From: an uncultured Bacilli bacterium | GTDB lineage: Bacteria > Bacillota_I > Bacilli_A > RF39 > UBA660 | Length of the DNA: 60,523 bases | Reading direction: 5' to 3' | Assembly (NCBI GenBank): GCA_947588765.1 | Contig: CANPZG010000004.1 | Coordinates: forward strand, 1 to 60,523 | The notes under the pieces: model-generated | The model's database searches: none | Told to the model about the DNA's origin: nothing | What the model saw: only the letters and a program-made list of their open reading frames with translations | Program-made: the position numbers and the translations under genes | Part shown: one piece after another, positions 13,970 through 37,884 of the stretch | Numbering within the stretch: position 1 is the stretch's first letter | Layout: each line of letters starts with the position of its first letter

Positions 13970-14137
13970 TTAATTGTGTTTTTCCTTATTTTCTTCTTCT
14001 CTTTCTTCAATATACTTTTTTAATATAAATTCTATTTCTTTATTTAAACTACGATTATCTGTTTCGGATAACTCTTTTAATGTTTCATATATTTCTTCAT
14101 CTATTCTAATTAATGTTGCCACTTTATACACATTCAT
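13970..14137 (-). CDS. Ribbon-helix-helix (CopG/Arc-like) small protein, 55 aa; below the ORF-track cutoff
   Basis: My own minus-strand translation gives MNVYKVATLIRIDEEIYETLKELSETDNRSLNKEIEFILKKYIEEREEENKEKHN-stop. A beta-strand followed by two helices is the RHH pattern. GGAAT/AAAGGAA lies upstream, and the gene is 24 nt downstream of the XRE gene. Confidence 0.6.
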   Translation of the reverse strand: MNVYKVATLIRIDEEIYETLKELSETDNRSLNKEIEFILKKYIEEREEENKEKHN

Positions 14138-14161
14138 TTTTATATTCCTTTCATATAATTA

Positions 14162-14398
14162 TTATTTTTCATCAAAGAATTTTTTGATATCAACACTTAA
14201 AACATCAGCTATACGACCTAGGACAGCTAAACTAAAACTTTTTCTTCTTTTTTCACTTTCAATTTCGGCTAGATAATCAATAGACATTTCAGCTTCATCA
14301 GCTAATTTTTGTTGAGTATATCCTTTTTGTAAACGATATTTTTTAATATTTTTTCTAACTATATCATAATAGTAATTATCGGTATGTTTAACGGCCAT
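14162..14398 (-). CDS. XRE-family helix-turn-helix transcriptional regulator
   Basis: HTH_3 pattern: IVRKNIKKYRLQKGYTQQKLADEAEMSIDYLAEIESEKR. AGGAG RBS ~10 nt before ATG 14398; the ORF track opens at TTG 14407. Divergent from the paralog gene at 14581. Confidence 0.85.
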   Translation of the reverse strand: MAVKHTDNYYYDIVRKNIKKYRLQKGYTQQKLADEAEMSIDYLAEIESEKRRKSFSLAVLGRIADVLSVDIKKFFDEK

Positions 14399-14453
14399 TA
14401 ATATCAACTCCTAATAATATTTTCCTATATATTAATTATTTCTTTTATGGGCT

Positions 14454-14488
14454 TATAGCACTAGACAAATATTTTATATTGTGCTATA
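14454..14488. promoter_or_regulatory. Candidate operator: 8-bp perfect inverted repeat in the divergent XRE/paralog intergenic region
   Basis: TATAGCAC (14454-14461), 19 nt, GTGCTATA (14481-14488), lying between the XRE start and the -35 of the paralog promoter. Confidence 0.3.
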
Positions 14489-14523
14489 TTTATTATGTAA
14501 AGATAGGTTAGAATTATAAAAAA

Positions 14524-14552
14524 TTGATAATACATCAAAAATGTTGTATACT
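14524..14552 (+). promoter_or_regulatory. Sigma-A-type promoter of paralog A
   Basis: TTGATA (14524-14529), 17-nt spacer, TATACT (14547-14552), about 29 nt upstream of ATG 14581. Confidence 0.55.
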
Positions 14553-14580
14553 AAATATAGATAATAAAAGGAGTAGTACC

Positions 14581-16339
14581 ATGGAAGAGCAAAATAAAAG
14601 AAAAAGTATAGTTTATTTAACAATAGGAGTATTAACTCTAGTAGCTTTAATAGCCGGAGCAACATATGCTTATTTTCAAGCTCAAACTGGAAATAATGCT
14701 GTAGCTAATTTAAATACTACAACAGGTAGTACTGATAATTTAACTTTTTCAACTGAAGGAGAAATCGAAATAAATGCCAGTGCAGATAACTTTGGCGAAA
14801 ATATGGGAGACCAAGTATCAAAGGCAAGTGCTAGTGCAACATTAATACCAAATAACACAACAAATAAGGCAAGTGATAAATATAATGTCTATTTAGTAAT
14901 AAATGAAAATACATTTGAATATACCAAAGATACAAATACACCAGAATTAATAATGACAGTAAAGAAAGATGGAGATGAATATACAAAAGTAAAAGAATTA
15001 ACAATAAAAGAAAATATAAATATTCAATATAAACAAGAAGGACAAGAAGACTTAACAAGTGAAACAATAAATGGGTATGATATAACCGAAAAAAGAGGAT
15101 TAATAAAAATAGCTGAAGGAGAAGACATAATAGCAAATGGTGGTCAAGAAATAGATAAATGGGAAATAAAGATAATATTAAGAAATTTAGATAAGGATCA
15201 AAATAAAAATACAGGAAAAACATTTAATGGCAAGATAATAATCCAAAAGGAAGATATTCCAACAAAGATATTAGATGTATGTGAACCAAATGATAATATA
15301 GCCAATTGTTTAATCAAATTACATGATGAAAGTGAATATGGAATAACAAAATTAGTGTATCATGATGAAGAAGAAGACTATAAAGGAGAAACAAACTACG
15401 AATTAGAAGCTGGAGACTTTTCTTATCGCTATAGTGGTTCAAATGAAGAAGTAAATAATTATGTTTGCTTTGGAGGGGATTGTTCTAATAATCCAAATGA
15501 AGAAGAAAAATATTCTAATTTATATAGAATAATAGGAGTGTTTCCAACAACAGCAACCAAAGATTCACCAAATAAAGAGTATCAAATAAAAATAATAAAA
15601 GCAGATTATACAACGGAAGAAGAAACGGGAAGGAGAAGGAGCATATAGCGGAACATATAGTTATGGATCGCCTTATTATCAGGGAGAAACAAGTTACTAT
15701 TCAAAAATAGCAGGATATTATTGGAATAGTACGAATACATCAAATAGTAATAATATGTGGAAAGAAAGTAATTTAAATACAGTAAATTTAAATGACACAT
15801 TCTATAACAAAATGATAGAATCATATAAAGAAATGATAGAAGAGCATGAATGGCAAGTAGGAGGTTTTGGTGCGCATGGAACCGCAAAAACAATATATAA
15901 TTTAGAATTAGGCATAGGTAAATTAACAGAACAAGATGAAAGATGTTATAATCAAGGAAATAATAGTACAAGTGCAAAAAGATTATGCAATGGTGACAAA
16001 GACATAACATATCCAGGATATGTAGGATTAATGTATGTAAGTGATTATATGTATGGAGCAACAAATAAAAGTTGGATAACAACAACAAATAACTATAGTG
16101 CAGTAAAAGACAATAACTGGTTATACATGGGATTAGAAGAATGGTTTATTTCTCGTGGGACCAACACTGGCAACTCTGCGTGGGTTGTTACTAGAGCCGG
16201 TCTTGTGTATGACGACAACTATGCTCTCTACGTGTATGGTGGCAGTCGTGGTGTACGTCCTGCCTTGTATCTGGAGTCTTCGGTAAAAATAATATCTGGG
16301 TCAGGTACAAGTGGTGACCCATACAAGCTTTCCATGTAA
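14581..16339 (+). pseudogene. Secreted-protein paralog A (SipW-like signal + N-module + shared Cys domain), split by a 1-nt frameshift near 15627-15633
   Basis: AAAGGAG RBS then ATG 14581 (MEEQNKRKSIVYLTIGVLTLVALIAGATYAYFQAQT). Frame 1 stops at TAG 15646-15648. Frame 2 is open from 15599 and continues EGEGAYSGTYSYGSPYYQGETSYYSKIAGYYWNS..., collinear with the intact 581-aa paralog at 36139 (GGEGIGAYYGPYGSESTYKGNSTYLGKVTRYYWN). Confidence 0.8.
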
Positions 16340-16452
16340 TAAATAAAAACTATCTTGAGATAATAAGTTAAACAATAAATATAAACTTAGATGTTATATA
16401 AAATAAAACGAATGAGAACTCTAATATAAACTGAATAACTGTTTGATTTATT

Positions 16453-16477
16453 AAAGGCCAAATTTGGTCTTTTTTTA
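16453..16477 (+). terminator. Probable terminator after paralog A
   Basis: AAAGGCCAAA-t-TTTGGTCTTT followed by a T-run (one G-U pair in the stem). Confidence 0.5.
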
Positions 16478-16578
16478 ATTGGTTAAAAATAACGAATTTT
16501 ATTGCTTTTTTTAGTGTTTTATATTAGAATAAATGCTACTAAAAAAATTATTTTAATTTTTGGGGGAGGTTTTGGCAA

Positions 16579-19500
16579 ATGTATAAAAAAATATGTTTAT
16601 TTGTATGTATGTTTTTATTATTACCAATATGTGTGCTAGCAAAAGATAAAATGGAATTAAATGTAGATAAAACAGATATAACTGTTGGTGATGAAATAAT
16701 TGTAACTGCTAAAGTTTCAGAAGAATTAAAAAGTTATGCTGTTATAGCTACATTAAAATATGATGAAAATGTTTTTCAAAAGATAGAAGAAACAAATTTT
16801 GATTTAGAGGATGCCGATAGTATTACTTATAATGAATACAATAATAAGTTTGGAATTATTAATAGAAGTGGAAGTATCACGGAGGATGGAGTTCTTTTTA
16901 GTGTTCGTTTAAAGGTAAAAAAAGATGCTAATGTTGGGGATACAAATATTGCTTTAACTAATATATCTTCATCTAATGGAAATGGGAAAATAAGTATTCC
17001 TTCTTGTAAAATTAAAGTTTTAATAACAAGAGATGCTACACCTGGAGAAACAATTCCCGAAAATGAAGAAAATACAATAACTGAAGATACAGAAAATACA
17101 ATTACTACTTTTACGACAATGCCAATTATATATATTTTAGGGAGCATTGCTTTAGTATCTTTAGTCTTAGTTTTAATTTTTATTAGAAAAAATAAATTAA
17201 GTAAAAAGATGATTATTACTTATATTTTATTAGAAATTGCTTTATTTGGGACTATTGTTGCATTAATTATTTCTAATAATAGTAAAAAAGATGTTAATAA
17301 TGATGGTACAAAAGATTATAATGATGCCGAAGAAATTATTAAGTACTTAATTGATATTAAAGGTAATAAAGAAGATAATCAAGATGAAGATAATAATGAA
17401 GAAAATATAACAAATGATAAAAATACTACTAATAAAAATAAGAACAAGAAACCTCATACTAATAATGAAAAACCAAAAGAAGATTTAGATACTAATAATG
17501 ATGGCGAAGTAGATATTGGTGATGTTGGTGATATTGTTGAAGAAGTAACTAAAAATACCAAAGTTGAATTATTCGAAGAAAAATATGACAATATTTATTA
17601 CGTTGAAAAAGGAGAAATAACCCTTAAATTTAAAGCTGATATTACTCCCGCGGATGTATTAATTACCAAAGTAAAAATTGATAATCAATATTATGATGTT
17701 AATTTAAATGAAAATGTATATTCCGTACAAGTAAATAGGACTATTGCGGGTAAATATGATTTTGTAATTACAGAAGTTGTTTTAAATAATGGCAAAAATG
17801 TTAAAACTAAATTAAAATTAACAAGAGAAATTTTAAAAGATGTACCTTATGTTAATAAATTTAATTTAGATGATGCTTCAAAGTCTTTATCTTTCCATTT
17901 AGTAGATGATGATAATGCCTTTATTTCAGGTATGGCAACTATTTATGCTGGTAATGAAATAATTATCAGTAAAGAAATATCAAATTTCACAGAAATAAAT
18001 GATATGCCTTTGGAAGAAGATAAAACTTATTTTGTAGAAATAGTTGGTAATTACGAGCTTGATAGTAATCGAAATGATCAAAATAATGCTTATGTAGATG
18101 AAGTAATGTTTGAACATGAATTTATGCTTGGAGGAGATTATAATTTTGAATTAACTAATTTTGGTATTACTGATGCCTTACAACCGGGGGAAAAACCAAT
18201 AATATCATTTACTAGTTCTAATACAAGAAATGCTAAAATTATGAATGCTACTTTAACAAATGATAATAAAGAAGCAAGTAATTACCAAATATCTAAAATA
18301 GATGGTAACAATTATGAAATTGTAGTGGATGATGCTGATATTACTCCTGGTAAACACACTATTTCTTTAGATGATGTTGGTTTAGATAGTTTAAAAACTT
18401 TTGAAAACAATAAAGATTATGTTACTAATACTTTAACATATACTGTTTTAAAAGAAGCTCCGAAGACAGAAGATATTAAATTAACTAGTAATCTAGAAGA
18501 AAAAGCAATTGATATTGAATTTATGTTAAAAGATCCAAACTTTGCTATTAACTCATTAAATATTGTTGTTGAAAATTCAACTGGTAAAGTAATATCTAAA
18601 GAAGAATTAATTATAGATCAATTTATTACTAATTTACTAGAAAATAAACCAATTAAAACTACAGTTTCATATGGAAATGATACAGATGGTTTATATACGG
18701 TTAAAATTCTTGCTAATTATGATTTATCCGAAAAATATAATTATACTAATCAAAATATAGGAGAAATGGAAATATTAACTCATGGCGATACTATATACAT
18801 TAGCGATATGTTTATAACTAATGATAGAAATGAAAGAACAAATAATTTATATCCAACTAAAAATGCTGGTAATTATCAATTAGCCATAACCTTAGTTACT
18901 AATGGTATTAGAGCTTATACAGCAATTGGTAGTGTAACCATTAATGGTTTAAATTATCCAGCTCAAACTATTGAAGGTTATAAGACAAAAGTTTATGTTA
19001 ATATACCTGATGAAGCTGGAGTTTTAACTTTAAAAGCTAATAGAGTATTACTTATTATTAATAATTACAATTTAAAATTAAATGATTATTATTCCGTTCC
19101 AGAAAAAACAATAAAAGTTGATGTTTTAAAAGATGCTCCTAAAATTGAAAATTTAAGTGTAGAAGAAAACTATGAACAAGATGAAGTAACCTTTGATTTT
19201 GATGTAGTATTAGATGAAAAAGCTAGTACTAGTGATGAAGATTTTAAAGATGGAAAAATTATTTTAAATGGCGAAACGCAACCAATAAATCGGGGTAAAA
19301 ATAGTGTTACTTTTAAAAATGTAGAAAAAGATACCATTTTTGATTTAGATTTTACAGCTAGTTATGATTTGGATTCCGATAATCCAGAAATTAATGCAAT
19401 AACTGGTGACCAAAATGAAAAAATTGATAATAAAATTTTTAGTGTTAAATATGGTTTATTCAATAAAAATACTTATGATAGTATTGCTATAACTGATGGT

Positions 19501-22500
19501 GAAATTTTAAGTCAAAAGAAAAATAAATATTTTGAAAAAAATGAAAGAATGTATTATAGCTTTGATATTATAGGTATTGATGAGGAAAAAGAATTAACAC
19601 CATTTAAGATAGTAGTTAATGATAAAGAATATCTTTTAACTAAAACTTTTAAAGGCTATGCAATTTTATTAGATGGATTTACTAGTTTTGGAGAAAAATC
19701 AATTACAATTACGGATATTATATTTAAAAATGGTCTTAAAGTTAAATTAACGAATCCATATACTGTAAAGATAGAAGTATTAAAAGATAAAATTAGTATT
19801 AATGATTATAATTATAAAATTGATAGCGATAATATTAAAATTACATTTAATAAAAAAGATACTGATAAATCATTAATAGATAATTTAATGGTTAGAATTA
19901 CGGATGATTTTGGCAAAGTCATTTATAATGATAGCTTTAAAAATGAAATTACTTTTGTTAAAGCAAATGATGTTATAAGATATAAAGTCGAAGTAATTGG
20001 TAGTTATGATCGTGATACGGAAATGACTATTAATAGTGAAAATAATTATCAAGATGCCGTATTATTAAGTGAAATTATATCTTTAGATGTAAATAATATT
20101 GAATTAAAAGATATTGAGGATGTTAATTTATACTTAAGAACAACTGTTGATGGTATTGATCAAACTGATAAAATTGATGAAATTTCCATTGTCGAACTAG
20201 AAAATAATTTAGATAATTACTTTGTAGAAATTATAATGACTAATTTACCAACGGTTCGATCTAAAATTGCCAGTGTTAAAAATATTGATAATCATTTATT
20301 CTTAGAGCTAGATTGCAATTACATAACAACGGAAAAAGGTAATGCTAATCAAACAATAAAAATTGATTTTGGAGAAATTAGTGCTAATGGTAAAGCTCTT
20401 AATGAAGAACATCCTGATATCGCTTTTGAAAAATTAATTGAAAAATTACAAAGAAATGAAAATGTGGAATTAACGAAAAATTATGATGCTGCAACTGTAA
20501 GTATTAGTGATGATTACTTTGTTGATGAATACAATGGAACTTTAAATGGTAATGGTTATACAATTAAAAACTTAGATAGACCTTTATTTAATAAAATTAA
20601 TAATGGTACAATTGAAAACTTAAAATTAGAAAATGTAACTATGCCTCGAACTAAAGGTAATGGAGCAATAGCTTTAACAACCAATAAATCAATAATTAGA
20701 AATGTTTTAATAAGTAACTATACTAAAATTAATAATGAAGCAGCAGTAGGTACGTTTGTTGGAACAGCAACCGATTCCACTTTTGAAAATTGTAAAGTAA
20801 GTAATTTCAAAATTAATTCAAATAGTTATACGCAACAATCTATTGGTGGTTTAGTAGGTTATTCTTATGGTTCAACTTTTGAAAACTGTTATGCCTCTGG
20901 TTCAATGAGTGATGGTTGGAATTTCCGTGCTGGTCTAGTTGGTAATGTCGCGAGAGCATCAACATTTATCAATAATTATACCCAAGTTTCATTTAATAAT
21001 CCTTGGGGTGGAGATATAATATGTGGTATTGCTTGTGGTTCCGGTGGTGGAACTTATAAAAATAATATAAGTGTTGGTTCGGGAATTAGGACGCGCATTT
21101 ATGGTTCCGCAAATGAAAGCGATAACAATTATTATTTAGCAAGCGATAATGATGATACTAAAGATCAAAATGGTGTTATTAAGATTACGACGAGTGAAGT
21201 TAATACAGAATTGTTCCGGGATAAAGCCCATTTTGATCCAACTATTTGGAGTTTAAATGATATTTCCATGGAATCTTTACCTAAATTAATCCCGGAAGTT
21301 AAAACTAAATTAGAATCTGAAACTAGTTATGAAAAGGATAAAGAATTATTATATAGTAACTTAATGAAATTAATGCCTTTCTATGATAATGAAAAAATAA
21401 TTAATGTGGGTAAAAATATTGATGTTAATAATTTATTAAATAAAAAAGAAATTCAACATATTTTACCAATTTCTCAAGATGGCAGTTTAGTTACCTATTT
21501 AACATATAATAATGTTAAAAAATTAGATAAAATAAAAATTGTCTTTAGTGATAATTCTAAAACGGAATATGCAGTTATCTTTGATAAAGTATATGATATG
21601 GTAGCATCTTATCGCATAACGGATTTAAATATTGATTATAGTTACAATCATTACTTAATTGATACTAATTCGCAAATAATAAATGATTTAACCAATTATT
21701 TAAGAAATCTTAATTATGCTGATAACTTAGATATTTTAACAAGTAAAGCTGATTCGCGGATTTATAGTGAATTCTATAATGATGTTACAAGTAAAGAATT
21801 ACAAGAATTTGTCTTAAAATATTTAGCTAATAGTAATTATATAAATACGACAAATGATGAAGCAATTAATGATTATCTGGAAGGAAAAATTAAACGAAAT
21901 CAAAAATTAGAAAAAGCCTTATATGTTTATAATTATTTCCGAAGATTCTATGATTTAGATGTTAATGGAATGAAAATATATGACTTTGTAATGTTTAATA
22001 TGCAAGGATTTGATAAAAATCTAACTGCTTCTAAAATAACGGATTTATTCTTAAGTGATGCAACTGGCGCAAATTTTGATACTAATCAAACTAATAATAG
22101 ATATGTAAGTGTTCTTGGAGGTTACACTAAATTAAATTCTATTCCAAAATTTTTAGAATTTATTGTTACTAAATTTAGTGATTATGATATGGCAGAATGG
22201 ACAAGAACGCAATTTAAAGGAATATTAAAAGAAATTACAATTGAAGGACATTCCGAAATTCAATATACTTTATGGGATCATTTAAGTAGTAGAGATTCTA
22301 AATATGGTGAAGTTAGTTTCAATTATGTTTTACCAATTTTAACTCTTCCAGAAACAGCAGCATATATAATTTCAGCTCCAGTGCAATATATAATTGGGGC
22401 ACAAAGAACTTATATGAATAATCCATATAGTGAAACTGATTTAGCTAATTTTGAAGAAAAAATAACATCATATACTGATAGAATGCAAAACTATTACACT

Positions 22501-24076: not shown

Positions 24077-24313
24077 TTATATATCTTTAAAAAATTCTGT
24101 AATTGGTACCTTTAATCTTTTAGATATAATATAAACAAATTCTAAACTAAAAGTTTGATAACTACTGTTTTCAACATTTGATACTGTACCTATATCATAG
24201 TTAATTAATTCGGCAAGTTTTGCTTGAGTTAATTTATGTTCTTTTCTAATTCTTCTTATATTCTTACCAACTATAACATATATGTATTTATTATCTGTTT
24301 TGTTAATCTCCAT
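24077..24313 (-). CDS. XRE-family helix-turn-helix transcriptional regulator
   Basis: VGKNIRRIRKEHKLTQAKLAELINYDIGTVSNVEN is an HTH_3 pattern. AGGTG RBS 8 nt before ATG 24313; the ORF track opens at 24319. Divergent from paralog B. Confidence 0.85.
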   Translation of the reverse strand: MEINKTDNKYIYVIVGKNIRRIRKEHKLTQAKLAELINYDIGTVSNVENSSYQTFSLEFVYIISKRLKVPITEFFKDI

Positions 24314-24433
24314 TGTCATTACACCTAGTATAATTATCTAATATCATTTGTTAAAATAACTGCATTTAATATATGCACTTTTTTTTAAGAAACTTGTGGT
24401 ATATTTATATTAGAAAAATAAAGGAGAGTTACT

Positions 24434-25705
24434 ATGGAAGAACAAAATAAAAGAAAAAGTATAATATATTTAACAATAGGAGTATTAACATTAATAGCTT
24501 TGATAGCGGGTGCAACCTATGCCTATTTTCAAGCCCAAACTGAAAATAATGCTGTAGCTAATTTAAATACTACAACCGGAACAACAGATAATCTAACATT
24601 TTCAACGGATGGTAATATATTAATAAATGCAAGTGCTGATAACTTTGGAGAAAATATGGGAGACCGAGTATCAACAGCAACTGCTAATGCGACATTGATA
24701 CCAAATAATACTACAAATAATGCAAGTGATACCTATAATGTATATCTTGCAATAAAAGAAAATACGTTTGTGTACACAACTGGGGAATCAACTCCAGAAT
24801 TAATATTATCAGTAAAGAAAGATGGAGAATATTATCAAATAAAAAATGAAGATCAAAAAGAAAATATAAGTATTCAATATAAGAAAAAAGGACAAGAAGC
24901 ATTAACAACTGAAACAATAAAAGGATATGATATAACAACAAAAGATGGATTAATAAAAATAGCTGAAGGGGAAACTATAACAGCAAATGAAAAACAAGAA
25001 ATAGATAACTGGGAAATAAAGATAATATTAAAAAATTTGATAAGTGATCAAAATAATAATACAGGAAAAACATTTAATGGAAAGATAATAATCCAAAAAG
25101 AAAAATTAGCTGATAGTGCAGTAGATTTATCAGGGAATGGATACAATGGTACATTTGAAAATGGAGCTGTTGCTATTCCCGATGAAGAAGGAAATATTGG
25201 AGTTTATTTTGATGGTATAGATGACTATGTTGATATTGTAGATTTACCAGATACAATAGATTGGGAAAGTGGATTTAATGTAGAGTTTGAAGCAAAATGG
25301 TTAGCGTTTAATAAATATTCAAGAATATTTGAGGCTTCTAATGGCCCTAATTCAAATAATATATACATAGCTAACACCAATTATAGTAGTAATCTTGTTT
25401 TATCAGTTTATGGAAAAGGAAAAGGGCATGTAATTTCTAGTGGACAATTATTATTAAATGAGAAAAATGTGGTAAAAATGACTTATACTAAAACTGAAAC
25501 CGGTTATAATTTAAATACAAATATTAATGGGGTAGATCAACCAGTTATAACTCATACACCATTATTAACAAATATTACTAGAACTAGTAACTATATGGGT
25601 AAATCAAATTGGAGTATAGATGGCTACTTTAATGGTTATATTTATAATTTAAAAATAACAGATAGTACTGGTAAACCAATTATTTGGTATGATTTTTCAA
25701 AATAA
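24434..25705 (+). CDS. Secreted-protein paralog B: SipW-like signal + shared N-module fused to a LamG/concanavalin-like jelly-roll domain
   Basis: The first ~220 aa are collinear with paralogs A and C (MEEQNKRKSIIYLTIGVLTLIALIAGATYAYFQAQT...KTFNGKIIIQKE). The C-terminus matches the Laminin_G_3 pattern: VYFDGIDDYVDI...FNVEFEAKW...RIFE...NYMGKSNWSIDGYFNGYIYNLKI. Confidence 0.8.
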   Translation: MEEQNKRKSIIYLTIGVLTLIALIAGATYAYFQAQTENNAVANLNTTTGTTDNLTFSTDGNILINASADNFGENMGDRVSTATANATLIPNNTTNNASDTYNVYLAIKENTFVYTTGESTPELILSVKKDGEYYQIKNEDQKENISIQYKKKGQEALTTETIKGYDITTKDGLIKIAEGETITANEKQEIDNWEIKIILKNLISDQNNNTGKTFNGKIIIQKEKLADSAVDLSGNGYNGTFENGAVAIPDEEGNIGVYFDGIDDYVDIVDLPDTIDWESGFNVEFEAKWLAFNKYSRIFEASNGPNSNNIYIANTNYSSNLVLSVYGKGKGHVISSGQLLLNEKNVVKMTYTKTETGYNLNTNINGVDQPVITHTPLLTNITRTSNYMGKSNWSIDGYFNGYIYNLKITDSTGKPIIWYDFSK

Positions 25706-28529: not shown

Positions 28530-28871
28530 TTATAGTTTTTTTAAATCAATAATGGCTTGAATATAACTATCAATTTGAACTTTTTCAATGTTGGAAAGTT
28601 TGCGATAATTATCTATTAAGTGATTTTCTTTTTCATTTAATTTTATATTATTAGGTGTAGGATTATCAGTTAGACCTAATAAGTAATCAGCTGAAGTATT
28701 TAATATTTTAGCCATTTTAATTATTGTTGAAGTTTTAGGGTATATTTTTCCACTTATATATTGACTAATAGCTTCTTGTGAAACTTCTAATTCTACAGCT
28801 AGAGAAGTTAATGATTTATTTTGTTCTTTTACTATTTTTTTAAGATTATTCATATTATTATTTTTATTCAT
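28530..28871 (-). CDS. XRE-family HTH regulator with a C-terminal extension (113 aa)
   Basis: LKKIVKEQNKSLTSLAVELEVSQEAISQYISGKIYP...ILNTSADYLLGLTDNP is an HTH_3 pattern, followed by a helical tail of ~40 aa. Divergent from paralog D. Confidence 0.85.
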   Translation of the reverse strand: MNKNNNMNNLKKIVKEQNKSLTSLAVELEVSQEAISQYISGKIYPKTSTIIKMAKILNTSADYLLGLTDNPTPNNIKLNEKENHLIDNYRKLSNIEKVQIDSYIQAIIDLKKL

Positions 28872-28982
28872 TTATTCCTCCAATTATAATTAACTACCAA
28901 AATTATATAATTATTACTTTAAATATAATTGAAGTTATGATAAAATAAAATTGAAGTATAAATTATAATAGAGGTGAATTAT

Positions 28983-30305
28983 ATGAAGAAAATATGGATA
29001 ATTATTACAATTATATTGATTATATGTGTTGGTATTTTTACAATTAATGTATTTAATAGCAAAGATAATAAAGTAATAAAGGATGATTTAGGAAATACAT
29101 TAGCTATAATGATATCAAACGAAAATGGAATAGGATATAAAGATTATGAAAAATCAATATGGCCTAGCAAAGAATATAGATTTAAAGAAGCAAAGTGTTA
29201 TGATATGAATGGTAATTCAGTGGAAAATGTAGTAACATTTAATGAAGAAACAAGAAAAGCAAAAATAACAACAAATCAAACAATAAGTTGTACCTTGTAT
29301 TTTGATAAACCAATAATAACATATTTAAGAAGTAATGATTCAAATGGTATTTTAAGTCAAGAAGAGGTAGGAGGAATGTATAGATACCAAGGAGTTGGAG
29401 TAGAAGAAGCAGCAGATGAAACTCATAAATATGTAGATAACAATTACATTTGTTTTGGAACAAAAGATGAAAGTAAATGTAATTGTGATACTGAGGATAA
29501 TTGTGATAAGTATATGTATCGAATAATAGGAATAACAGCAGATGATGAGTTATATTTAATTAAAATGAAAGTGATTGACGATGGCAATACAAAAACATTT
29601 CAATTAAATTCAAAATATTTAATTGATGATTGTGTTAATAATGCATGTGAATGGGCAAATGTTGAATTATATAAAAGGATAAATGGAGAAGCTTCTCAAA
29701 TAAATATGTCAAATATATTTATAAATAGTGAGAGATATGATTATTTAAAAGATGGAAATCCATGGTATGAAAAAATTGATTATCATAATTGGCTATATGG
29801 TGATATAAATCATATGGCTAACAAAGAATTGAATGGTGAAACAGTTTATGGTGCTTTTAATAATGGTTTAATAGTGTATGAGATAGAAACTGGTTTAAAA
29901 CCAACACAACATTTTGAATATATTAATAATGAATGGAAAATGGTAAAGCATCAATGGAGCCAAGATAAAAAGGTAAAAGCTAAAATAAGATTGATGTATA
30001 TTCATGATGACACTTTAGCATATGATAATATAATAGGTGGTCTTTGGACAGATAATCCAAATAATTGGATAAATTTAAAAAATAGTACGAATACAACGAG
30101 TAGTGAACGCGAATGGTTACTAACAAATTTAGGAAAGGTTAGTGATAGTGCTAACTATTTACATCATTATATGGTATATTCAGAAGGACGCATAGATACA
30201 ACTGAACCGAGTTGGCTCGCACGTGTACGACCTACATTTTATCTAGTAAATACCATTCAATTATCAGGCAAAGGTACAATAGATAATCCATATATCATTA
30301 ATTAA
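28983..30305 (+). CDS. Membrane-anchored paralog D: plain N-terminal TM anchor + unique region + shared Cys domain
   Basis: AGAGGTG RBS 6 nt before ATG 28983. MKKIWIIITIILIICVGIFTI anchor. Shared-domain motifs MYRYQG...NNYICFG...YMYRIIGI ... IRLMYIHDD ... REWLLTN ... VRPTFYL..LSGKGTIDNPYIIN. Confidence 0.8.
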   Translation: MKKIWIIITIILIICVGIFTINVFNSKDNKVIKDDLGNTLAIMISNENGIGYKDYEKSIWPSKEYRFKEAKCYDMNGNSVENVVTFNEETRKAKITTNQTISCTLYFDKPIITYLRSNDSNGILSQEEVGGMYRYQGVGVEEAADETHKYVDNNYICFGTKDESKCNCDTEDNCDKYMYRIIGITADDELYLIKMKVIDDGNTKTFQLNSKYLIDDCVNNACEWANVELYKRINGEASQINMSNIFINSERYDYLKDGNPWYEKIDYHNWLYGDINHMANKELNGETVYGAFNNGLIVYEIETGLKPTQHFEYINNEWKMVKHQWSQDKKVKAKIRLMYIHDDTLAYDNIIGGLWTDNPNNWINLKNSTNTTSSEREWLLTNLGKVSDSANYLHHYMVYSEGRIDTTEPSWLARVRPTFYLVNTIQLSGKGTIDNPYIIN

Positions 30306-30371
30306 ATTGCTATTATTTCTTTTTAATCTTTAATATGTTATACTTATTATATTGAAAAGGAGATGGTAGAT

Positions 30372-31121
30372 ATGTTAGTTGATAAAATTAAACATGAATT
30401 AATAGAACAACGAAAATCAAAATTTAAGGGTAATATCTATCATTATTCTCAAGTTAATTTTGCTTATCATTCCAATAAAATTGAAGGTAGTCAATTAACT
30501 GAAGATGAGACTGAAGAAATATTTGAAACGGACTCTTTTATTCCTAAAAGTGATAAGATAATAAAACTTAATGATTTAACAGAAATGAAGAATCATTTTC
30601 GTCTATTTGATTATTGTTTAGACATTATTGATGAACCATTAACTAAAGATATAATTATAAATATGAATGTAATTTTAAAAAGAAATACTACTGATGAAGA
30701 AAATCCTCGATATAATGTCGGAGGTTTTAAAATTGTTCCCAATAAGATAGGGCTTATTAATGTAATAAATACATCAAGTCCCGAAGATGTGGAAAAAGAA
30801 TTAGATAACTTATTAAAGGAATATAAAAAAATAAATAATGTTACGATTGAAGATATTATAGATTTTCATTATCGTTTTGAATGTATTCACCCTTTTGGCG
30901 ATGGTAATGGTCGCGTGGGTAGAATTATTATGTTTAAGGAATGTTTAAAAAATAACATTATGCCTTTTATTGTTTTAGATAATGATAAACCTTATTATAT
31001 GCGGGGATTAAAAAATTATAAAGAAGATAAAATGTTTTTAATAGATACAATTAAACATGAACAAGATTTATATGAAAGTGCAGCTCAAGAAATGTTAAAT
31101 TTTGAATTAAAAGATAATTAA
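30372..31121 (+). CDS. Fic-family protein (probable AMPylase) with an N-terminal inhibitory motif
   Basis: Fic active-site motif HPFGDGNGRVGR (nt 30888-30923). An [ST]xxxE[GN] motif, SNKIEG, lies at nt 30471-30488. AAGGAG RBS 9 nt before ATG 30372. Confidence 0.88.
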   Translation: MLVDKIKHELIEQRKSKFKGNIYHYSQVNFAYHSNKIEGSQLTEDETEEIFETDSFIPKSDKIIKLNDLTEMKNHFRLFDYCLDIIDEPLTKDIIINMNVILKRNTTDEENPRYNVGGFKIVPNKIGLINVINTSSPEDVEKELDNLLKEYKKINNVTIEDIIDFHYRFECIHPFGDGNGRVGRIIMFKECLKNNIMPFIVLDNDKPYYMRGLKNYKEDKMFLIDTIKHEQDLYESAAQEMLNFELKDN

Positions 31122-32304: not shown

Positions 32305-33030
32305 ATGAAATATTTAGTATGTAATTTAAAAAATAAAATGGGGTTAACTGATTTTCTAAAATACAATACTAATTTAAAAGATATTGAACCTTTAGGTACT
32401 AAGTTAATTATTGCACCTTCAAGTGCTTACTTTTTGATGATGAATCCAATTAATTATAGTTTAGCTAGTCAAGATATTACTTCTTTAATTGATGAAACGG
32501 TAACTGGTGAACTAACAGGAAGACAACTAGCATCATACAACATAAAGTATTGCATTGTAGGTCATAGTGAAAGAAGAATATTTAAAAAAGAAATAAATAT
32601 TGATTTTATAAATAAAATAACAGAAGCCGTTAATCATGGTTTAAGTGTTATTTATTGTATTGGGGAAACGTTACAAGAAAAAAATAATAATCAAACTAAA
32701 GAAGTATTGGATAGGCAAATTAGTGAAGTTTTAAATAATGTTGAATTAAAAGATATTATTATTGCTTATGAACCAGTTTGGGCTATTGGTAGTGGTAAAG
32801 TTCCTACGAATAAAGAAATAGAAGAAAATATAAATTATATTAAGAAAATTATTCGGGAAAAATATGATTTAAATATGCCAGTATTATATGGTGGTAGTGT
32901 TAATCCTGATAATATAACAACTTTAGTAGATTTAAAAAATGCTGATGGTTTTTTAGTAGGAGGGGCTAGTTTAGATGTCTCATCTATCAAAGAAATTTTA
33001 AAAGTTATGAATGAAGCTAGATGGGACTAA
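32305..33030 (+). CDS. tpiA: Triosephosphate isomerase (short, 241 aa)
   Basis: Catalytic Lys context CNLKNKM, VGHSERR, AYEPVWAIGSG, LYGGSV. The start abuts the pgk stop (TAAATG). Confidence 0.9.
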   Translation: MKYLVCNLKNKMGLTDFLKYNTNLKDIEPLGTKLIIAPSSAYFLMMNPINYSLASQDITSLIDETVTGELTGRQLASYNIKYCIVGHSERRIFKKEINIDFINKITEAVNHGLSVIYCIGETLQEKNNNQTKEVLDRQISEVLNNVELKDIIIAYEPVWAIGSGKVPTNKEIEENINYIKKIIREKYDLNMPVLYGGSVNPDNITTLVDLKNADGFLVGGASLDVSSIKEILKVMNEARWD

Positions 33031-33071
33031 AATTGGTCCTTTTTCTTTTTATATAGATTTAAGTCCTTTAT

Positions 33072-33108: not shown

Positions 33109-33184
33109 GAAGTTTTTGTAGCTTTTTGTAAATTATCCATTTATAATGATGACATGTGCGGTAAAAAGGAAAGGAAACATTATT

Positions 33185-33949
33185 TTGAAAAAGTTTATTA
33201 ATGTAGTTGTCATTGATGACAATGAAGTAGTAACTAGTAACATGAAGAAGTACTTTTTAAGTAGTGAGAAGATTAACATTCAAAAAATATTCAAGGATGG
33301 AAAGACTGGTTTAGATTATTTAATAAATAATGCCACAGAATATGATATCGTTATAATGGATTTGTTGTTACCAAATATTGATGGTATTGCTATTCTAGAA
33401 GAATTAAATAATAAAAATATTAGTAAGACTACCATTATTTTATCTAATTATAAGGATGATTATTCTGTTCAAAGAGCTAGAAGTTTGGGAGCAGCATTTT
33501 ATATGCTAAAACCATTTAGTATGGAATCTTTAGAAAAGAGAATTTTAGATATTAATAAGGAATATAATGCGAAAGTAGAAAATGCTAATAATTATGTGGA
33601 ATTAGAAATTAGTTCAATGTTACATGAATTAGGTATACCAACTCATATCTTAGGTTATCAATATTTAAGAGAAGGAATATTATATTTGTATGAACATCCC
33701 CGAAATTATTCTTTAGTAACAAAAGATGTATATCCAGCTGTTGCTGAAAAATATGATACTACACCTCAACGAGTTGAAAGAGCAATTAGACATGCTATCG
33801 AAGTTAGCTGGGTAAGAGGTGATTTAAAATTAATGGAAAGTTTATTTGGCAACAGCATAGATTTTGAAAAAGCAAGACCTACTAATAGCGAATTCTTAAC
33901 AACTATTGCTGATAGATTAAAAATAAATTCCAAAATATTAATTGGTTAA
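33185..33949 (+). CDS. spo0A: Sporulation master regulator Spo0A (receiver domain + Spo0A-specific DNA-binding domain)
   Basis: Receiver: VVVIDDNE...DIVIMDLLLPNIDG. Spo0A_C: HELGIPTHILGYQYLREGI..., TTPQRVERAIRHAIEVSW, KPTNSEFLTTIADRL. Preferred start is TTG 33185 after AAAGGAAAGGAAA; the ORF track opens at ATG 33146. Confidence 0.9.
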   Translation: MKKFINVVVIDDNEVVTSNMKKYFLSSEKINIQKIFKDGKTGLDYLINNATEYDIVIMDLLLPNIDGIAILEELNNKNISKTTIILSNYKDDYSVQRARSLGAAFYMLKPFSMESLEKRILDINKEYNAKVENANNYVELEISSMLHELGIPTHILGYQYLREGILYLYEHPRNYSLVTKDVYPAVAEKYDTTPQRVERAIRHAIEVSWVRGDLKLMESLFGNSIDFEKARPTNSEFLTTIADRLKINSKILIG

Positions 33950-33977: not shown

Positions 33978-34040
33978 ATTGGCAAAAAATTGTAATTTTT
34001 AAAATGATATGGTATTATTTTATATAGAATAGGTGATTAT

Positions 34041-35537
34041 ATGAAAAAACTATTAACAATTATTTTTGATGGCTTTGGTATGAGAGAAGAAACTAAAGGT
34101 AATGCTGTAAAGTTAGCCAATATGCCTAATTTTAATAATATGTGGGAAAATTATCCCCATGCACTACTCAGTGCTAGTGAAGAAGCTGTTGGTTTAAAGG
34201 CTGGCCAAGTTGGAAATAGTGAAGTAGGACATTCTACGATTGGGGCTGGACGAGTATTAAAACAAAGTGAAGTTTTGGTCGATGAATTTTTAGAAAATGT
34301 TGATGAGACTAACGAAACTGTTGCCAAGCTTTTAGAATTAAAAGAAAAAGATATCCATATTGTAGGCTTATGTAGCGACGGTAATGTTCATGCTGGAGTG
34401 GATGATTTTCTAAATGTTTTTAATTTTTTAGCTAATCATGGTTTTAAAAAAATCCATTTTCATCTTATAACTGATGGTAGAGATACGGCTGTAAATGTTG
34501 CTTATAATTATATAAAGATGATAGAAGCAGCAATTAAGAAAAATAAAGTTGGTAATATCGCAACAATATGTGGTAGATATTATGCCATGGATAGAGATGA
34601 AAATTGGGATAGAACAAAAATATATTATGATTTAATTGTTAATGGAAAGGGAAGTTTATCTTTAAATGTTGAAAAATCTTTAAAAGCATCATATGAAGCT
34701 GGCGTAACTGATGAGTTTATTAAACCAATTATTCTGGCTAAAGATATGATAAAAAAAGATGATGTTGTTATTTGGATGAATTACAGAGCTGATCGCTCAA
34801 AACAATTGTTAATAGCTTTAACTAATCCGGAATTTAATGAATTTAGAACTACAAAATTAGATATTGAACTATTTACTTTATTTGACATTGATAAAAGAAT
34901 TAAAAGTAATGTTTTCTTAGAAACACCTTCGGTAAAAGAACCTTTAGGTATATATTTATCGGAATTAGGTTTAACGCAAGCAAGAGTAGCGGAAAGTGAA
35001 AAATTTCCTCATGTAACTTACTTCTTTGATGGTGGATTTAATGGTAAAATAGATAAATGTGATAAATTTCATATTCCATCACCAGAAGTTGCAACTTATG
35101 ATTTAATGCCCGAAATGAGTGCTTATAATGTAACTAAAAAAGTAATTAATTGTATGGTTAATGATTATGATTTTATCTTAGTTAATTTTGCTAATCCTGA
35201 TATGGTAGGGCATACTGGTAATTTAGATGCAGCAATTAAAGCTTGTGAAGTAGTTGATGAATGTTTAGGCAAATTAATTGAGAAAGCTGATGAGAATTTC
35301 TATAAAATTATTTTACTCGCGGACCATGGTAATTGTGATACCATGATAAATCTTGATGGTTCTCCTTGTACCACTCATTCCATTGAAAAAGTTCCTTTTA
35401 TAGTGATGGATAACAAAATTGGCTTACAAAAAATAGGAACTCTTGCTAACGTGGCTCCAACAATATTAGATTATTTAGATATTGCAGTACCTAAAGATAT
35501 GCAAGAAACTGATACAATTTTAATTGATGGTGATTAA
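34041..35537 (+). CDS. gpmI: 2,3-bisphosphoglycerate-independent phosphoglycerate mutase
   Basis: LTIIFDGFG, GNSEVGHSTIGAGR, HLITDGRDT, ADHGNCD (metalloenzyme superfamily, iPGM). Confidence 0.95.
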   Translation: MKKLLTIIFDGFGMREETKGNAVKLANMPNFNNMWENYPHALLSASEEAVGLKAGQVGNSEVGHSTIGAGRVLKQSEVLVDEFLENVDETNETVAKLLELKEKDIHIVGLCSDGNVHAGVDDFLNVFNFLANHGFKKIHFHLITDGRDTAVNVAYNYIKMIEAAIKKNKVGNIATICGRYYAMDRDENWDRTKIYYDLIVNGKGSLSLNVEKSLKASYEAGVTDEFIKPIILAKDMIKKDDVVIWMNYRADRSKQLLIALTNPEFNEFRTTKLDIELFTLFDIDKRIKSNVFLETPSVKEPLGIYLSELGLTQARVAESEKFPHVTYFFDGGFNGKIDKCDKFHIPSPEVATYDLMPEMSAYNVTKKVINCMVNDYDFILVNFANPDMVGHTGNLDAAIKACEVVDECLGKLIEKADENFYKIILLADHGNCDTMINLDGSPCTTHSIEKVPFIVMDNKIGLQKIGTLANVAPTILDYLDIAVPKDMQETDTILIDGD

Positions 35538-35551
35538 AAAATAAAAAGTTT

Positions 35552-35591
35552 TATGACGAAATTCTTTGCAAATGCAAAAAAATTCGTCATA
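35552..35591. repeat. Left copy of a 40-bp element whose exact reverse complement recurs at 38025-38064
   Basis: TATGACGAAATTCTTTGCAAATGCAAAAAAATTCGTCATA. It is an imperfect palindrome with 6 asymmetric positions, so its orientation can be determined. Confidence 0.9.
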
Positions 35592-35614
35592 AGATAGCAA
35601 TAATAAAAGCAACG

Positions 35615-35641
35615 AAATGTTTCAGTACGACTGAAACATTT
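35615..35641. terminator. Perfect 12-bp stem hairpin in the gpmI-downstream spacer
   Basis: AAATGTTTCAGT-acg-ACTGAAACATTT followed by T. Confidence 0.5.
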
Positions 35642-35655
35642 TATCAAATTATGCA

Positions 35656-35684
35656 AAATCTTTCACTGGCACTGAAAGATTTTT
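35656..35684. terminator. Second hairpin (10-bp stem), sequence-related to the one at 35615
   Basis: AAATCTTTCA-ctggcac-TGAAAGATTT followed by TT. It shares ACTGAAA[CG]ATTTT with the previous hairpin. Confidence 0.45.
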
Positions 35685-35751
35685 ATAATGAATTAATTTA
35701 TATAGGTTATAGTGTAAATGCTTATAATAACAAAAGTAGACTATTTAAAGC

Positions 35752-35958
35752 CTACTTTTGTTGTGCTGTTACTTTTTCATCATCGTCATCTTCTAAATTA
35801 TTTAAAGCATATTCAATACAATCATTAATTAATTTATTCATTGAAATATTATGTTTAGAAGATAAATCTTCAATTTTTTTGTATGTTGATACTTTAATTC
35901 TTATTGTTTTTAGCATAGTCTTTTCTTCTTGAATGGTGGGTATTTTAAATTTTTCCAT
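35752..35958 (-). CDS. Ribbon-helix-helix (CopG/Arc-like) small regulator, 68 aa
   Basis: GAGG RBS then ATG 35958. MEKFKIPTIQEEKTMLKTIRIKVSTYKKIEDLSSKHNISMNKLINDCIEYALNNLEDDDDEK is an RHH pattern. Divergent from paralog C. The ORF track extends to 36117 without an RBS. Confidence 0.7.
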   Translation of the reverse strand: MEKFKIPTIQEEKTMLKTIRIKVSTYKKIEDLSSKHNISMNKLINDCIEYALNNLEDDDDEKVTAQQK

Positions 35959-36045
35959 AACTACCTCTTTCTTTAAAATTATAGGATATTTTATTACATT
36001 TTTTAAAGGTTTACAAAAATAATACAAATTGTGTACGTTTTGTAC

Positions 36046-36074
36046 TTGAAATATACCTATGAATAATTTAAAAT
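36046..36074 (+). promoter_or_regulatory. Candidate sigma-A promoter of paralog C
   Basis: TTGAAA (36046-36051), 17-nt spacer, TAAAAT (36069-36074). Confidence 0.4.
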
Positions 36075-36138
36075 AATATATAGAGATAATAAGAATAAAA
36101 CAAAATAAATTAAACACAATAATAGAAGGAGTAGTACT

Positions 36139-37884
36139 ATGGAAGATAAGAACAAAAGAAAAAGTATAATATATTTAATAATAGGTATTGTAACATTAAT
36201 AGCTTTAATAGCCGGAGCAACATATGCTTACTTTCAAGCTCAAACTGGAAATAATGCTGTAGCTAATTTAAATACAACCACAGGTACAACAGATAATCTA
36301 ACATTTTCAACAGAAGGAGAAATAGAAATAAATGCAAGTGCTGATAACTTTGGCGAAAATATGGGAGCCCAAGTATCACAAGCAAGTGCCATAGCAACAT
36401 TAATCCCAAATAATACAAATAATCAAGCTAAAGAAAAATATAATGTCTATTTAGTAATAAATGAAAACCCATTTGAATATACAAATGGAGAAGAAAATCC
36501 AGAATTAGTATTAACAGTAACAAAAGATGGAGGAGAATATACAAAAGTCCAAGATTTAACAATTAAAAATAATATAACGATAAATACTAAAGAGGGAGAA
36601 GACTTAACAAGTGAAACAATAAAAGGATATGATATAACAACAAAAAGAGGATTAATCAAGATAGCCGAAGGGGAAGATATCATAGCAGATAATAAAACCG
36701 AAACTGATAAATGGGAAATAAGTATCATATTAAAGAATTTAGAAACCAATCAACAATTAAATACAGGAAAAGTATTTAATGGTAAGATAATAATTCAAAA
36801 AGAAGAAATACCAACCAAGATATTAGATGTATGTAAAAGTGGAGACAATATAGCCGATTGTTTAATCAAATTACATGATGAGAGTGAATATGGAATAACA
36901 AAGTTAGTATACCATAATGAACAAGAAGATTATAAAGGAGAAACAAACTATACAGAAGAAGCTGGAGACCTTTCATATAGATATAGTGGCTCAAGTGCAG
37001 AAGTAAATAATTATATCTGTTTTGGAGGAGACTGCTCAAACGACCCAACCAATCCAAATTATTCTAATTTGTATCGGATAATAGGAGTGTTTCCAACAAC
37101 AGCAACAAAAGATTCATTGAATAAAGAATACCAATTAAAAATAATAAAAGCCGATTATGCAACAGCTGAAGAATTAGGTGGAGAAGGAATAGGAGCATAT
37201 TATGGTCCCTATGGTTCAGAAAGTACATATAAGGGAAATTCAACATATCTAGGAAAGGTAACAAGATATTATTGGAATAGAGAACAAAACAATTCAGGTG
37301 ATAATACAAATGATTGGAGTAAAAGTAATTTAAATACTGAAAATTTAAATAAATATTTTTTAGATGAATATTTAAAACCTAAAGATGATGGTAAATGGTA
37401 TAATATGATAGAAGAACACTCATGGATAACTGCCGGAGTTAACTGGACAAAAATAAAAATGCAAAATGCCAAAACAATATATTTAAATGAAATAGTAAAT
37501 TTAGATGTAGGAACAGCATTAACAAGTGCGGTACCAGAAGTTACAGCAAGAGTGGGATTAATGTATATAAGTGATTATATGTATGGAGCAAGTCAAGAAC
37601 ATTGGTCAAAAGCAGGAAATAATAATGGCATTAATGATTATAGTGAAAGTAAAAGCAATAATTGGATATATATGGGTTTAGGAGAATGGTTAATTACTAG
37701 ACAAGTTGAAAGTCCAAATCGAGCACTTACAGTACACGTTTATGGGCTTGTGAGTGATGGTTATGTATATGAGGATAATCCTAACTATAACGTGACAATT
37801 AGACCAATAGTTTATCTGAAGCCTGATGTGAAAATTTTCGCAGGCTCTGGTACAAGTAATGACCCATACATAATTTCTGAATGA
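36139..37884 (+). CDS. Secreted-protein paralog C (intact 581 aa): SipW-like signal + N-module + shared Cys domain
   Basis: GAAGGAG RBS. MEDKNKRKSIIYLIIGIVTLIALIAGATYAYFQAQT. Shared-domain motifs SYRYSGS..NNYICFGGDCS..LYRIIGVFP ... VGLMYISDYMYGAS ... NNWIYMGLGEWLITR ... IRPIVYL..GSGTSNDPYIISE. Ends at a TGA stop. Confidence 0.85.
   Translation: MEDKNKRKSIIYLIIGIVTLIALIAGATYAYFQAQTGNNAVANLNTTTGTTDNLTFSTEGEIEINASADNFGENMGAQVSQASAIATLIPNNTNNQAKEKYNVYLVINENPFEYTNGEENPELVLTVTKDGGEYTKVQDLTIKNNITINTKEGEDLTSETIKGYDITTKRGLIKIAEGEDIIADNKTETDKWEISIILKNLETNQQLNTGKVFNGKIIIQKEEIPTKILDVCKSGDNIADCLIKLHDESEYGITKLVYHNEQEDYKGETNYTEEAGDLSYRYSGSSAEVNNYICFGGDCSNDPTNPNYSNLYRIIGVFPTTATKDSLNKEYQLKIIKADYATAEELGGEGIGAYYGPYGSESTYKGNSTYLGKVTRYYWNREQNNSGDNTNDWSKSNLNTENLNKYFLDEYLKPKDDGKWYNMIEEHSWITAGVNWTKIKMQNAKTIYLNEIVNLDVGTALTSAVPEVTARVGLMYISDYMYGASQEHWSKAGNNNGINDYSESKSNNWIYMGLGEWLITRQVESPNRALTVHVYGLVSDGYVYEDNPNYNVTIRPIVYLKPDVKIFAGSGTSNDPYIISE

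Follow-up and report, generated by a model that had tools for sequence, protein, structure and literature searches.

The large genes of four dispersed cassettes (A to D) and a pilin-like gene in contig CANPZG010000004.1 (the stretch analysed as a whole, 60.5 kb, ~28% G+C, hereafter the window) probably constitute a repertoire of variable ligand-binding surface proteins, diversified by a diversity-generating retroelement (DGR), which acted in the past or from elsewhere in the genome, together with module exchange. Homologs in related genomes are demonstrable DGR targets, and a stretch resembling their variable regions (VRs) was found in paralog A. The window encodes Spo0A, SpoVT, YabG, YabP, ClpP, a glycolytic operon and a ribosomal-protein operon, and was assigned to a low-G+C spore-forming Firmicute based on these genes and its G+C content.

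Cassettes and shared modules

The first-pass annotation had described four cassettes, each pairing a small minus-strand DNA-binding gene with a divergent large plus-strand gene, and all four were confirmed at their positions. The features of the cassettes and of the pilin-like gene are as follows:

13970..14137, minus strand: RHH-like gene of cassette A, 55 aa (TraY 20.9 against 21.3 bits; RHH_3 19.8 against 21.6; FitA-like, Arc)
14162..14407, minus strand: XRE regulator of cassette A (HTH_3, E 2.6e-10, 40.6 bits, cut-off 23)
14454..14488, no strand: imperfect palindrome and possible operator in the intergenic region of A (16-nt arms, 81% complementary)
14581..16339, plus strand: paralog A, N-module and C-domain, frameshifted and chimeric (three-frame translation)
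16157..16261, plus strand: variable-region-like stretch of paralog A (composition and codon signature)
24077..24319, minus strand: XRE regulator of cassette B (HTH_3, E 2.4e-11, 43.9 bits, cut-off 23)
24434..25705, plus strand: paralog B, N-module (71% identical to that of D) and Laminin_G_3, a concanavalin-like lectin domain
28530..28871, minus strand: XRE regulator of cassette C, 113 aa (HTH_3, E 4.5e-12, 46.3 bits, cut-off 23)
28974..30305, plus strand: paralog C, distinct hydrophobic anchor and stalk, then C-domain (alignment; tblastn for the C-domain)
35752..35958, minus strand: RHH-like gene of cassette D, 68 aa (no Pfam match; called as a gene in three other assemblies)
36139..37884, plus strand: paralog D, intact full-length member of 581 aa (helix, beta-sandwich N-module and, as predicted, DUF6273/C-type-lectin-like C-domain)
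55806..59324, plus strand: pilin-like protein of 1172 aa, shared domain internal, then fn3 and Cys-rich repeats (tblastn, hidden Markov model (HMM))

When the modules of D were used as tblastn queries against the window, three N-modules (at 14581, 24434 and 36139) and exactly four C-domains (15352-16333, 29400-30302, 36904-37881 and 56574-57203) were counted. The four carriers of the C-domain (~325 aa), including the gene at 55.8 kb, were those that had been named before. The N-module had been ascribed to the first three paralogs by position and is instead carried by the genes at 14.6, 24.4 and 36.1 kb, and the shared domain of the 55.8-kb gene, described as C-terminal, is internal (~aa 232-465). 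The three N-modules were 71-78% identical in amino acids and 74-88% in nucleotides. The near-identical 5' module that had been reported, including the context of the ribosome-binding site, was recovered as 300 nt at 84-88% identity; conservation began at the ribosome-binding site, and the intergenic DNA upstream was unrelated between paralogs. No Pfam or NCBIfam model matched any large window protein in full.

DGR targets among homologs in related genomes

At locus L001, the homolog P0113 lies on a 281-kb contig and is followed by genes for a 126-aa MutS_I-like protein (MSL), a 114-aa Avd-like protein and a 359-aa RVT_1 protein (reverse transcriptase, RT). The 3' end of P0113 is joined to the downstream spacer by a 103-nt repeat, in which all mismatches (17/17) fall at adenines of the spacer copy, within AAC/AAT codons, and this confinement to adenines is the signature of a DGR template and its variable repeat. 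The same MSL-Avd-RT cassette was found after family members in L039 and L062, where the mismatches between template and variable repeat fell at template adenines in 22 of 28 and 13 of 14 cases, respectively. To our knowledge, the combination of MSL and Avd as accessory genes has rarely been described. The cassettes, ordered as target, template repeat, MSL, Avd-like gene and RT, are located as follows:

L001, 10116-11902: DGR cassette
L039, 2121-3829: DGR cassette
L062, 11187-12967: DGR cassette

The template of L062 also matched the VRs of two unlinked loci of the same metagenome-assembled genome (MAG), L028 with 1 non-A and 22 A-site mismatches and L024 with 4 and 23, respectively, so the DGR acts in trans on several family members. 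In the rabbit MAG Lapin-004 bin116, a framework of nnT/nnC (nnY) codons was common to four dispersed paralogs; of 31 codons, 19 varied at the first position, 19 at the second and 4 at the third. A VR with G+C of at least 0.45 and adenine of at most 0.25 was present in 39 of the 55 members fetched, with ~30% G+C in the remainder of the gene. The proven VRs aligned to residues 522-555 of D, at the C-terminal end of the C-type-lectin (CLec)-type domain; these residues are the only hypervariable block of the family alignment and lie between EW(T/L)I(S/T)R and RPxxYL. The unknown function that had been stated for the family was narrowed by these results to a C-type-lectin-like scaffold hypermutated by DGRs in related genomes.

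A conserved G+C-rich hairpin, TGTCTAGCGCGTCCnCGnGCTAGG, is a candidate target-recognition element; it stands ~15-20 nt past the stop codon in proven DGR targets, one of them remote and without a neighbouring RT. Related hairpins were found after L013, L025, L029 and L039, and the hairpin itself at these positions:

L001, 9589-9612: G+C-rich hairpin
L028, 11584-11607: G+C-rich hairpin
L037, 11466-11489: G+C-rich hairpin
L062, 10547-10570: G+C-rich hairpin

Elsewhere on L001, a large serine recombinase (Resolvase/Recombinase/Zn_ribbon_recom; 701-2536, minus strand) is encoded ~5.5 kb upstream of the DGR-linked family gene.

VR-like stretch of paralog A

The VR-like stretch of paralog A falls in the 130 nt where the G+C of the window peaks (at 0.54; mean 0.28), and a G+C of 0.51 was reached by 0.025% of the 130-nt segments. 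With G+C of 0.51 and an adenine fraction of 0.17, the stretch matched the proven VRs of homologs. Its codons ended in C in 11 of 35 cases, compared with 12 of 134 in the rest of the open reading frame (ORF) (p = 0.0015), and in A in 2 of 35 cases, compared with 67 of 134. Since the rest of A's 3' ORF has ~30% G+C, the bias is local and does not point to foreign origin. From this composition it is inferred that a DGR wrote paralog A in recent times or still targets it, and that the other copies are no longer targeted. The freshly written appearance of A's VR implies a DGR that acts from outside the window or that was active until recently.

The template corresponding to A's VR was searched for with two patterns. 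An over-permissive IUPAC pattern (A allowed everywhere) gave 2,933 matches in JGI metagenome contigs, all of them poly-A runs, and a stricter pattern of the nnY framework gave 0 matches in viral contigs.

Fold of the C-domain

An AlphaFold2 model of D, built from an alignment of 28 sequences (pLDDT 86.8, pTM 0.82), consisted of a helix (4-35), a disordered linker, a beta-sandwich (~53-220) and a mixed alpha/beta domain (~252-581). When the full model was compared with PDB by Foldseek, one significant match was obtained, to 9qa6, the immunoglobulin A (IgA) protease of Thomasclavelia ramosa (E 6e-6); the C-domain modelled alone matched the same entry at E 8e-8 and probability 1.0 over 346 aligned columns, with the C-terminal CTLD (a C-type-lectin-like domain) of Legionella Lcl as the second match. 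Several gut-phage proteins named as DUF6273 domain-containing were among the best BFVD matches (probability 0.96-1.0). Residues His259, Asp277 and Cys294 of D (window ~36913-37020), at the start of the C-domain, were invariant across the 28 homologs. The N-terminal domain of the IgA protease (IgAse) binds a structural zinc through Asp, His and Cys, at a spacing different from that of the three residues of D. This domain of the protease (residues 31-321) was described by the depositors as an enlarged C-type-lectin-like domain most similar to Lcl (PMC12237041), and it was annotated as DUF6273 by a second group (PMC12402451). In gut phages, DUF6273 domains are CLec-like DGR targets (PMC10743442).

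On the basis of these models, the C-domain is assigned as a divergent DUF6273-type, C-type-lectin-like head, which would bind a ligand. The DUF6273 relationship had been offered tentatively in the first-pass annotation; it holds at the level of the fold and among the homologs, 6 of 28 of which gave a weak DUF6273 match when scanned singly (best E 1.5e-4), but the window's own proteins fail the direct HMM test. The HMM and AlphaFold/Foldseek checks that had been proposed for the C-domain thus gave the IgA protease as a structural match; no Pfam or NCBIfam model matched this domain in the proteins of the window, even with the domain as sole query at E 10.

N-terminus and N-module

The nearly invariant stretch GATYA[YF]F[QK], which ends the hydrophobic N-terminal helix, is the best conserved of the family; the helix would serve as a signal-anchor or as a signal peptide with special processing. 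Residues 15-35 of D scored 15.2 bits (E 0.018) against the SipW-cognate signal TIGR04088, for which the curated cut-off is 19; the signal was not detected in the L001 homolog, and no SipW-like peptidase is encoded within the window. By Foldseek, the N-module had no significant structural neighbour and gave weak matches to beta-sandwich and fibre-subunit proteins only (E 0.02-0.05).

Module exchange among paralogs

The shuffled module set that had been proposed was well supported by the comparisons of P0003 with D and of A with D, by a replacement at the B locus and by the three different N-terminal contexts in which the C-domain occurs within the window. P0003, a close relative of D, and D itself were ~99% identical in the C-terminal half (from ~aa 305), with one residue different in the variable stretch, and ~75% identical in the N-module. 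Paralog A, the chimeric nature and frameshift of which had been overlooked, is split at ~15629/15630 into a 355-aa ORF (14581-15648) and a 194-aa ORF (15755-16339). As the frameshift was repeated in two other assemblies (L082 and L083, 100% nucleotide identity over 2.7 kb), it is not an assembly slip of this contig. The identity between A and D falls from 78-80% before the frameshift to 38% after it, and the frameshift therefore marks a recombination junction.

At L056, a locus syntenic with that of B in a related rabbit MAG (Lapin-021 bin67), the flanks are 82-94% identical in nucleotides and the XRE gene is 95% identical, and a gene for an 801-aa protein of N-module, FN3 and C-domain stands in place of B's N-module and LamG domain; the variation of cassettes between related genomes, which had been suggested as a check, was thereby seen in the content of this locus. 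In B itself, the C-terminal 203 aa alone matched Laminin_G_3 (PF13385) with 31 bits against a cut-off of 27.6 (E 3.3e-7). The N-terminus of C differs in alignment from the N-module of A, B and D, and its C-domain was 25% identical to that of D over 353 aa (E 3e-14, tblastn). The corresponding domain of the pilin-like gene was 29% identical to D over 308 aa (E 1e-27, tblastn). Judged from these alignments, the paralogs are mosaics.

The pilin-like protein begins with KKGFVFIET, a prepilin-like motif (G|FVFIET) followed by a hydrophobic helix as judged by eye; no N_methyl or prepilin model of Pfam or NCBIfam matched the gene (55806-59324), and an fn3 match was obtained at E 1.2e-8. At 58307-58809 (plus strand) it contains 3-4 tandem Cys-rich repeats of ~71 aa (period 213-216 nt, 76-90% nucleotide identity) with the motif R(T/S)ITQYC.D..SGC...SYTQTF. 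Its promoter-proximal region and first 78 nt (55737-55879) recur at 60380-60523 with 78% and 96% identity, respectively, and a second pilin-like gene accordingly starts at 60446, at the end of the window.

Divergent XRE and RHH-like genes

The three genes labelled XRE in the first-pass annotation passed HTH_3, whereas the RHH calls at A and D were sub-threshold. The 68-aa gene of cassette D gave sub-threshold matches to the BfmA N-terminus (E 6e-4, 20 against 24 bits) and to PrgO, and the RHH-like genes of A and D were weakly similar to each other by BLAST (E 0.001). Among 61 related family genes with enough upstream sequence, ~14 had a small divergent XRE/RHH-like gene within 500 nt upstream and none had a co-directional one; these loci included the cis DGR target L062 and the trans target L028. 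Copies of A's XRE gene, 69-70% identical, stand divergently upstream of family genes in the Hadza MAG loci L028 and L041; the XRE of L028 is 69% identical to that of A, although the neighbouring family proteins have an identity to D of only ~36%. The adjacency of regulator and target, which had been expected to recur in related genomes, does so, and the pairing is recurrent and partly orthologous but not family-defining. As to the proposal of a regulated repertoire, the recurrence was borne out, but regulation itself is argued from adjacency. From their arrangement, the XRE/RHH genes are most likely local repressors that set the expression of the paralogs.

Weak imperfect palindromes were present in the intergenic regions of A and D (the latter at 36012-36044), and that of A overlaps a promoter-like site (14462-14490). 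Promoter-like sites in the intergenic regions of this A+T-rich DNA were no commoner than in shuffled sequence.

Family size and distribution

More than 1361 proteins matched D, which is a lower bound. Many of them aligned over the full length at ~38% identity, and almost none were named or had a Pfam match. The profile of the C-domain alone gave 6802 clusters at 50% identity. Among species-representative genomes, the family was found in CAG:460 and in MAGs of uncultured 'Bacilli/Tenericutes' from the gut of rabbits and of humans, the Hadza included, with up to a dozen family loci per MAG on long chromosomal contigs. Many copies were present in the MAGs Lapin-004 bin116, Lapin-016 bin54 and CAKOLL01. 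The cassettes encode paralogs of this large family of putative surface proteins.

Genes neighbouring the cassettes

The interruption of housekeeping blocks that had been pointed out was confirmed: the gap-pgk block is split by the XRE gene, paralog C and a Fic gene, and D has gpmI on one side and the S10 operon on the other. Next to the cassettes stand accessory genes, all on the plus strand, namely Fic after C (30363-31121), a RhuM + Fic gene upstream of the pilin-like gene (53593-54546) and an AAA_14/DUF4143 ATPase after D (38123-39376), so the cassettes sit in small accessory islands between housekeeping operons. The spo0A gene (33146-33949, plus strand) is placed unusually, within the glycolytic string between tpi (32305-33030) and gpmI (34041-35537), and this position is kept in three other assemblies (L079, L081).

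Directly downstream of A, a 2487-aa M26-type zinc metalloprotease (ZmpA/B/C-like; Peptidase_M26_N/C) is encoded at 16579-24042 (plus strand). The gut IgA protease that gave the best structural match of the C-domain belongs to family M64, unlike this neighbour. An M26 protease beside A, taken with an IgA-protease-like C-domain, suggests an island for interaction with the host mucosa.

Discussion

In the mechanism proposed here, a full-length member (D, and A before its frameshift) would consist of an N-terminal helix ending in GATYA[YF]F[QK], a beta-sandwich stalk of ~170 aa and a C-type-lectin-like head of ~325 aa, with the last ~35 residues before RPxxYL forming the hypervariable binding surface. 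In related genomes, the MSL-Avd-RT cassette copies adenine-mutagenised cDNA from the template into the VR of the adjacent gene and of unlinked paralogs, and one retroelement thereby diversifies a set of putative surface receptors or adhesins. Within the window, the paralogs swap modules, the N-module being combined with a CLec or a LamG head and the CLec head with a pilin-like N-terminus or a simple anchor. In C, D and the pilin-like gene, the VR-equivalent has drifted to genomic composition, with A retaining a VR that looks freshly written, and the divergent XRE/RHH genes would repress locally and so choose the paralog that is expressed.

A number of results weigh against this reading or are explained as readily by a rival one. 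The RT and template tests covered the window, and no RT, Avd or MSL gene was found in its 60.5 kb (tblastn with the L001 proteins), nor any template repeat (adenine-tolerant scan). The hairpin of L001, L028, L037 and L062 was not found in the window at up to 3 mismatches either; since it is also missing from many VR-like homologs, its absence does not decide the DGR question. In D, C and the pilin-like gene, the stretch equivalent to the VR is unremarkable in composition and includes codons out of reach of adenine mutagenesis of AAY. A and D were 100% identical in nucleotides in two and three other assemblies, respectively, with no variation of the VR, and the identical copies are probably from the same strain; in the protein database no VR variants of A were present, only the window's own sequence and one relative at 38%. 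Paralog A is a pseudogene unless the frameshift is bypassed, and about three quarters of the related loci (~47/61) have no divergent regulator. As for the fold, no DUF6273 HMM matched the window proteins, including the C-domain of D alone up to E 10, no PDB sequence matched two family profiles (A3 and A6) even at E 10, and the match to 9qa6 had a TM-score of only 0.40 with a root-mean-square deviation of 11.6 Å, values that in this modelled comparison indicate a common core and not a close likeness. The reading as a whole is built on sequence and predicted structure, from which expression, localisation and binding are deduced. Several of these results, namely the window without RT or template, A chimeric and frameshifted exactly at the junction, A and D invariant across assemblies and the eroded VR-equivalents of the other three genes, together with the clear mosaicism, would also be expected if the cassettes formed a recombining, regulator-gated repertoire with no retroelement acting here. 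Duplication, gene conversion and module swapping would then account for the diversity, and the G+C-rich stretch of A would be a relic passed on by an ancestor or donor paralog formerly targeted by a DGR. This is a serious possibility, though a somewhat doubtful one. Under the strong A+T mutation pressure of a window of 28% G+C, the G+C-rich VR of A should have been erased, and recent writing is therefore probable; in related MAGs, VRs of active appearance are present in most members of the family; and DGRs reach remote paralogs in these lineages, so that absence from 60 kb says little.

The other explanations concern the nature of the proteins. The N-module could be a TasA/camelysin-like fibre subunit exported by a SipW-type route, with surface fibres displaying the lectin heads, and the resemblance of the highly conserved GATYAYFQ to the SipW-cognate signal, the disordered linker and beta-sandwich that follow the helix in the AlphaFold2 model and the weak Foldseek matches to the donor-strand fibre subunits PapA, FimA and Ena3A are in keeping with it. 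It is nevertheless improbable, as the TIGR04088 score is below the cut-off and the L001 homolog lacked a detectable motif, the fibre-subunit matches have E-values of only 0.02-0.05, TasA was not among the top 50 Foldseek matches, and the window has no SipW-like peptidase. A further explanation is that the cassettes derive from decayed mobile elements or prophages, with the large proteins acting as phage receptor-binding or tail-fibre proteins and the XRE/RHH genes as phage-type repressors or antitoxins. Genes of the XRE and RHH types are characteristic of prophage and toxin-antitoxin modules; a tail-collar fibre protein and DUF6273 phage proteins are among the best structural matches from viruses, gut phages are known to have DUF6273 proteins targeted by DGRs, Fic and AAA_14/DUF4143 genes lie nearby, and housekeeping operons are interrupted by the cassettes. 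Against this, the flanks of the cassettes contain no integrase, terminase or phage structural genes, every member starts with a hydrophobic helix that is conserved and that phage tail proteins do not have, copies occupy syntenic chromosomal sites in related MAGs, with up to a dozen per genome on long chromosomal contigs, and remote DGR targets are typical of non-phage DGRs (PMC5758913). The phage-remnant explanation is very improbable, and it was rejected on the absence of phage genes and the conserved N-terminal anchor.

A repertoire diversified by a past or distant DGR and by module exchange is thus the reading preferred here. In a bolder and unlikely form of it, a single chromosomal MSL-Avd-RT cassette of these gut Bacilli with reduced genomes would write one template into at least a dozen dispersed paralogs, each behind its own repressor, giving a system of two layers for surface recognition in which hypervariation of sequence is combined with the choice of a paralog. 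Were this so, GATYAYF would mark a dedicated export or processing route, and the window would represent a strain in which the retroelement no longer reaches most copies and these diversify by exchanging modules.

Relation to known systems

The class of mechanism is established, and the family is a very large, unannotated one of DUF6273-type C-type-lectin variable surface proteins. A structural and mechanistic identity is offered by these results for a very large family that has no Pfam model of its own, and this multi-copy repertoire supplies candidates for receptors that face the host, mucus or phages in gut Bacilli, as yet uncultured, of rabbits and humans. The results also add cellular cases in which several unlinked targets are served by one DGR, and the window illustrates the decay or reshuffling of DGR targets once the retroelement stops acting on them.

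TvpA of Treponema denticola and LdtA of Legionella resemble the family in the surface-exposed CLec head, the C-terminal VR and the several unlinked paralogs per DGR; in Treponema one DGR serves seven remote targets (PMC5758913). The accessory set of MSL and Avd in L001, L039 and L062 is that of a subset of DGRs which includes the Legionella one (Wu et al., PMC5758913). TvpA and LdtA are lipoproteins with CLec domains of the FGE-sulfatase or DUF1566 type, whereas the family described here has another N-terminus, another stalk and a DUF6273-type head; compared with those systems, the window has no DGR, and most of its copies have lost the VR signature.

According to a preprint, tip adhesins of type V pili are diversified by a DGR in Bacteroides (bioRxiv 10.1101/2024.11.15.621889). 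The likeness lies in gut commensals with adhesive or pilus DGR targets, one carrier here being pilin-like (55806-59324), and the two systems differ in phylum, pilus system and domain family, the link to pili in the window being the N-terminal motif recognised by eye.

With the DUF6273 (PF19789) domains of the IgAse and of the DGR-targeted 'tentaclins' and Mtd-like proteins of gut phages, the family shares an enlarged CTLD core of ~300 aa and DGR VRs. The window proteins differ from them in matching neither the DUF6273 HMM nor any PDB sequence, and in architecture, as the domain, which is not part of a peptidase or a phage protein, is here C-terminal on a cellular protein with an N-terminal anchor and a beta-sandwich stalk.

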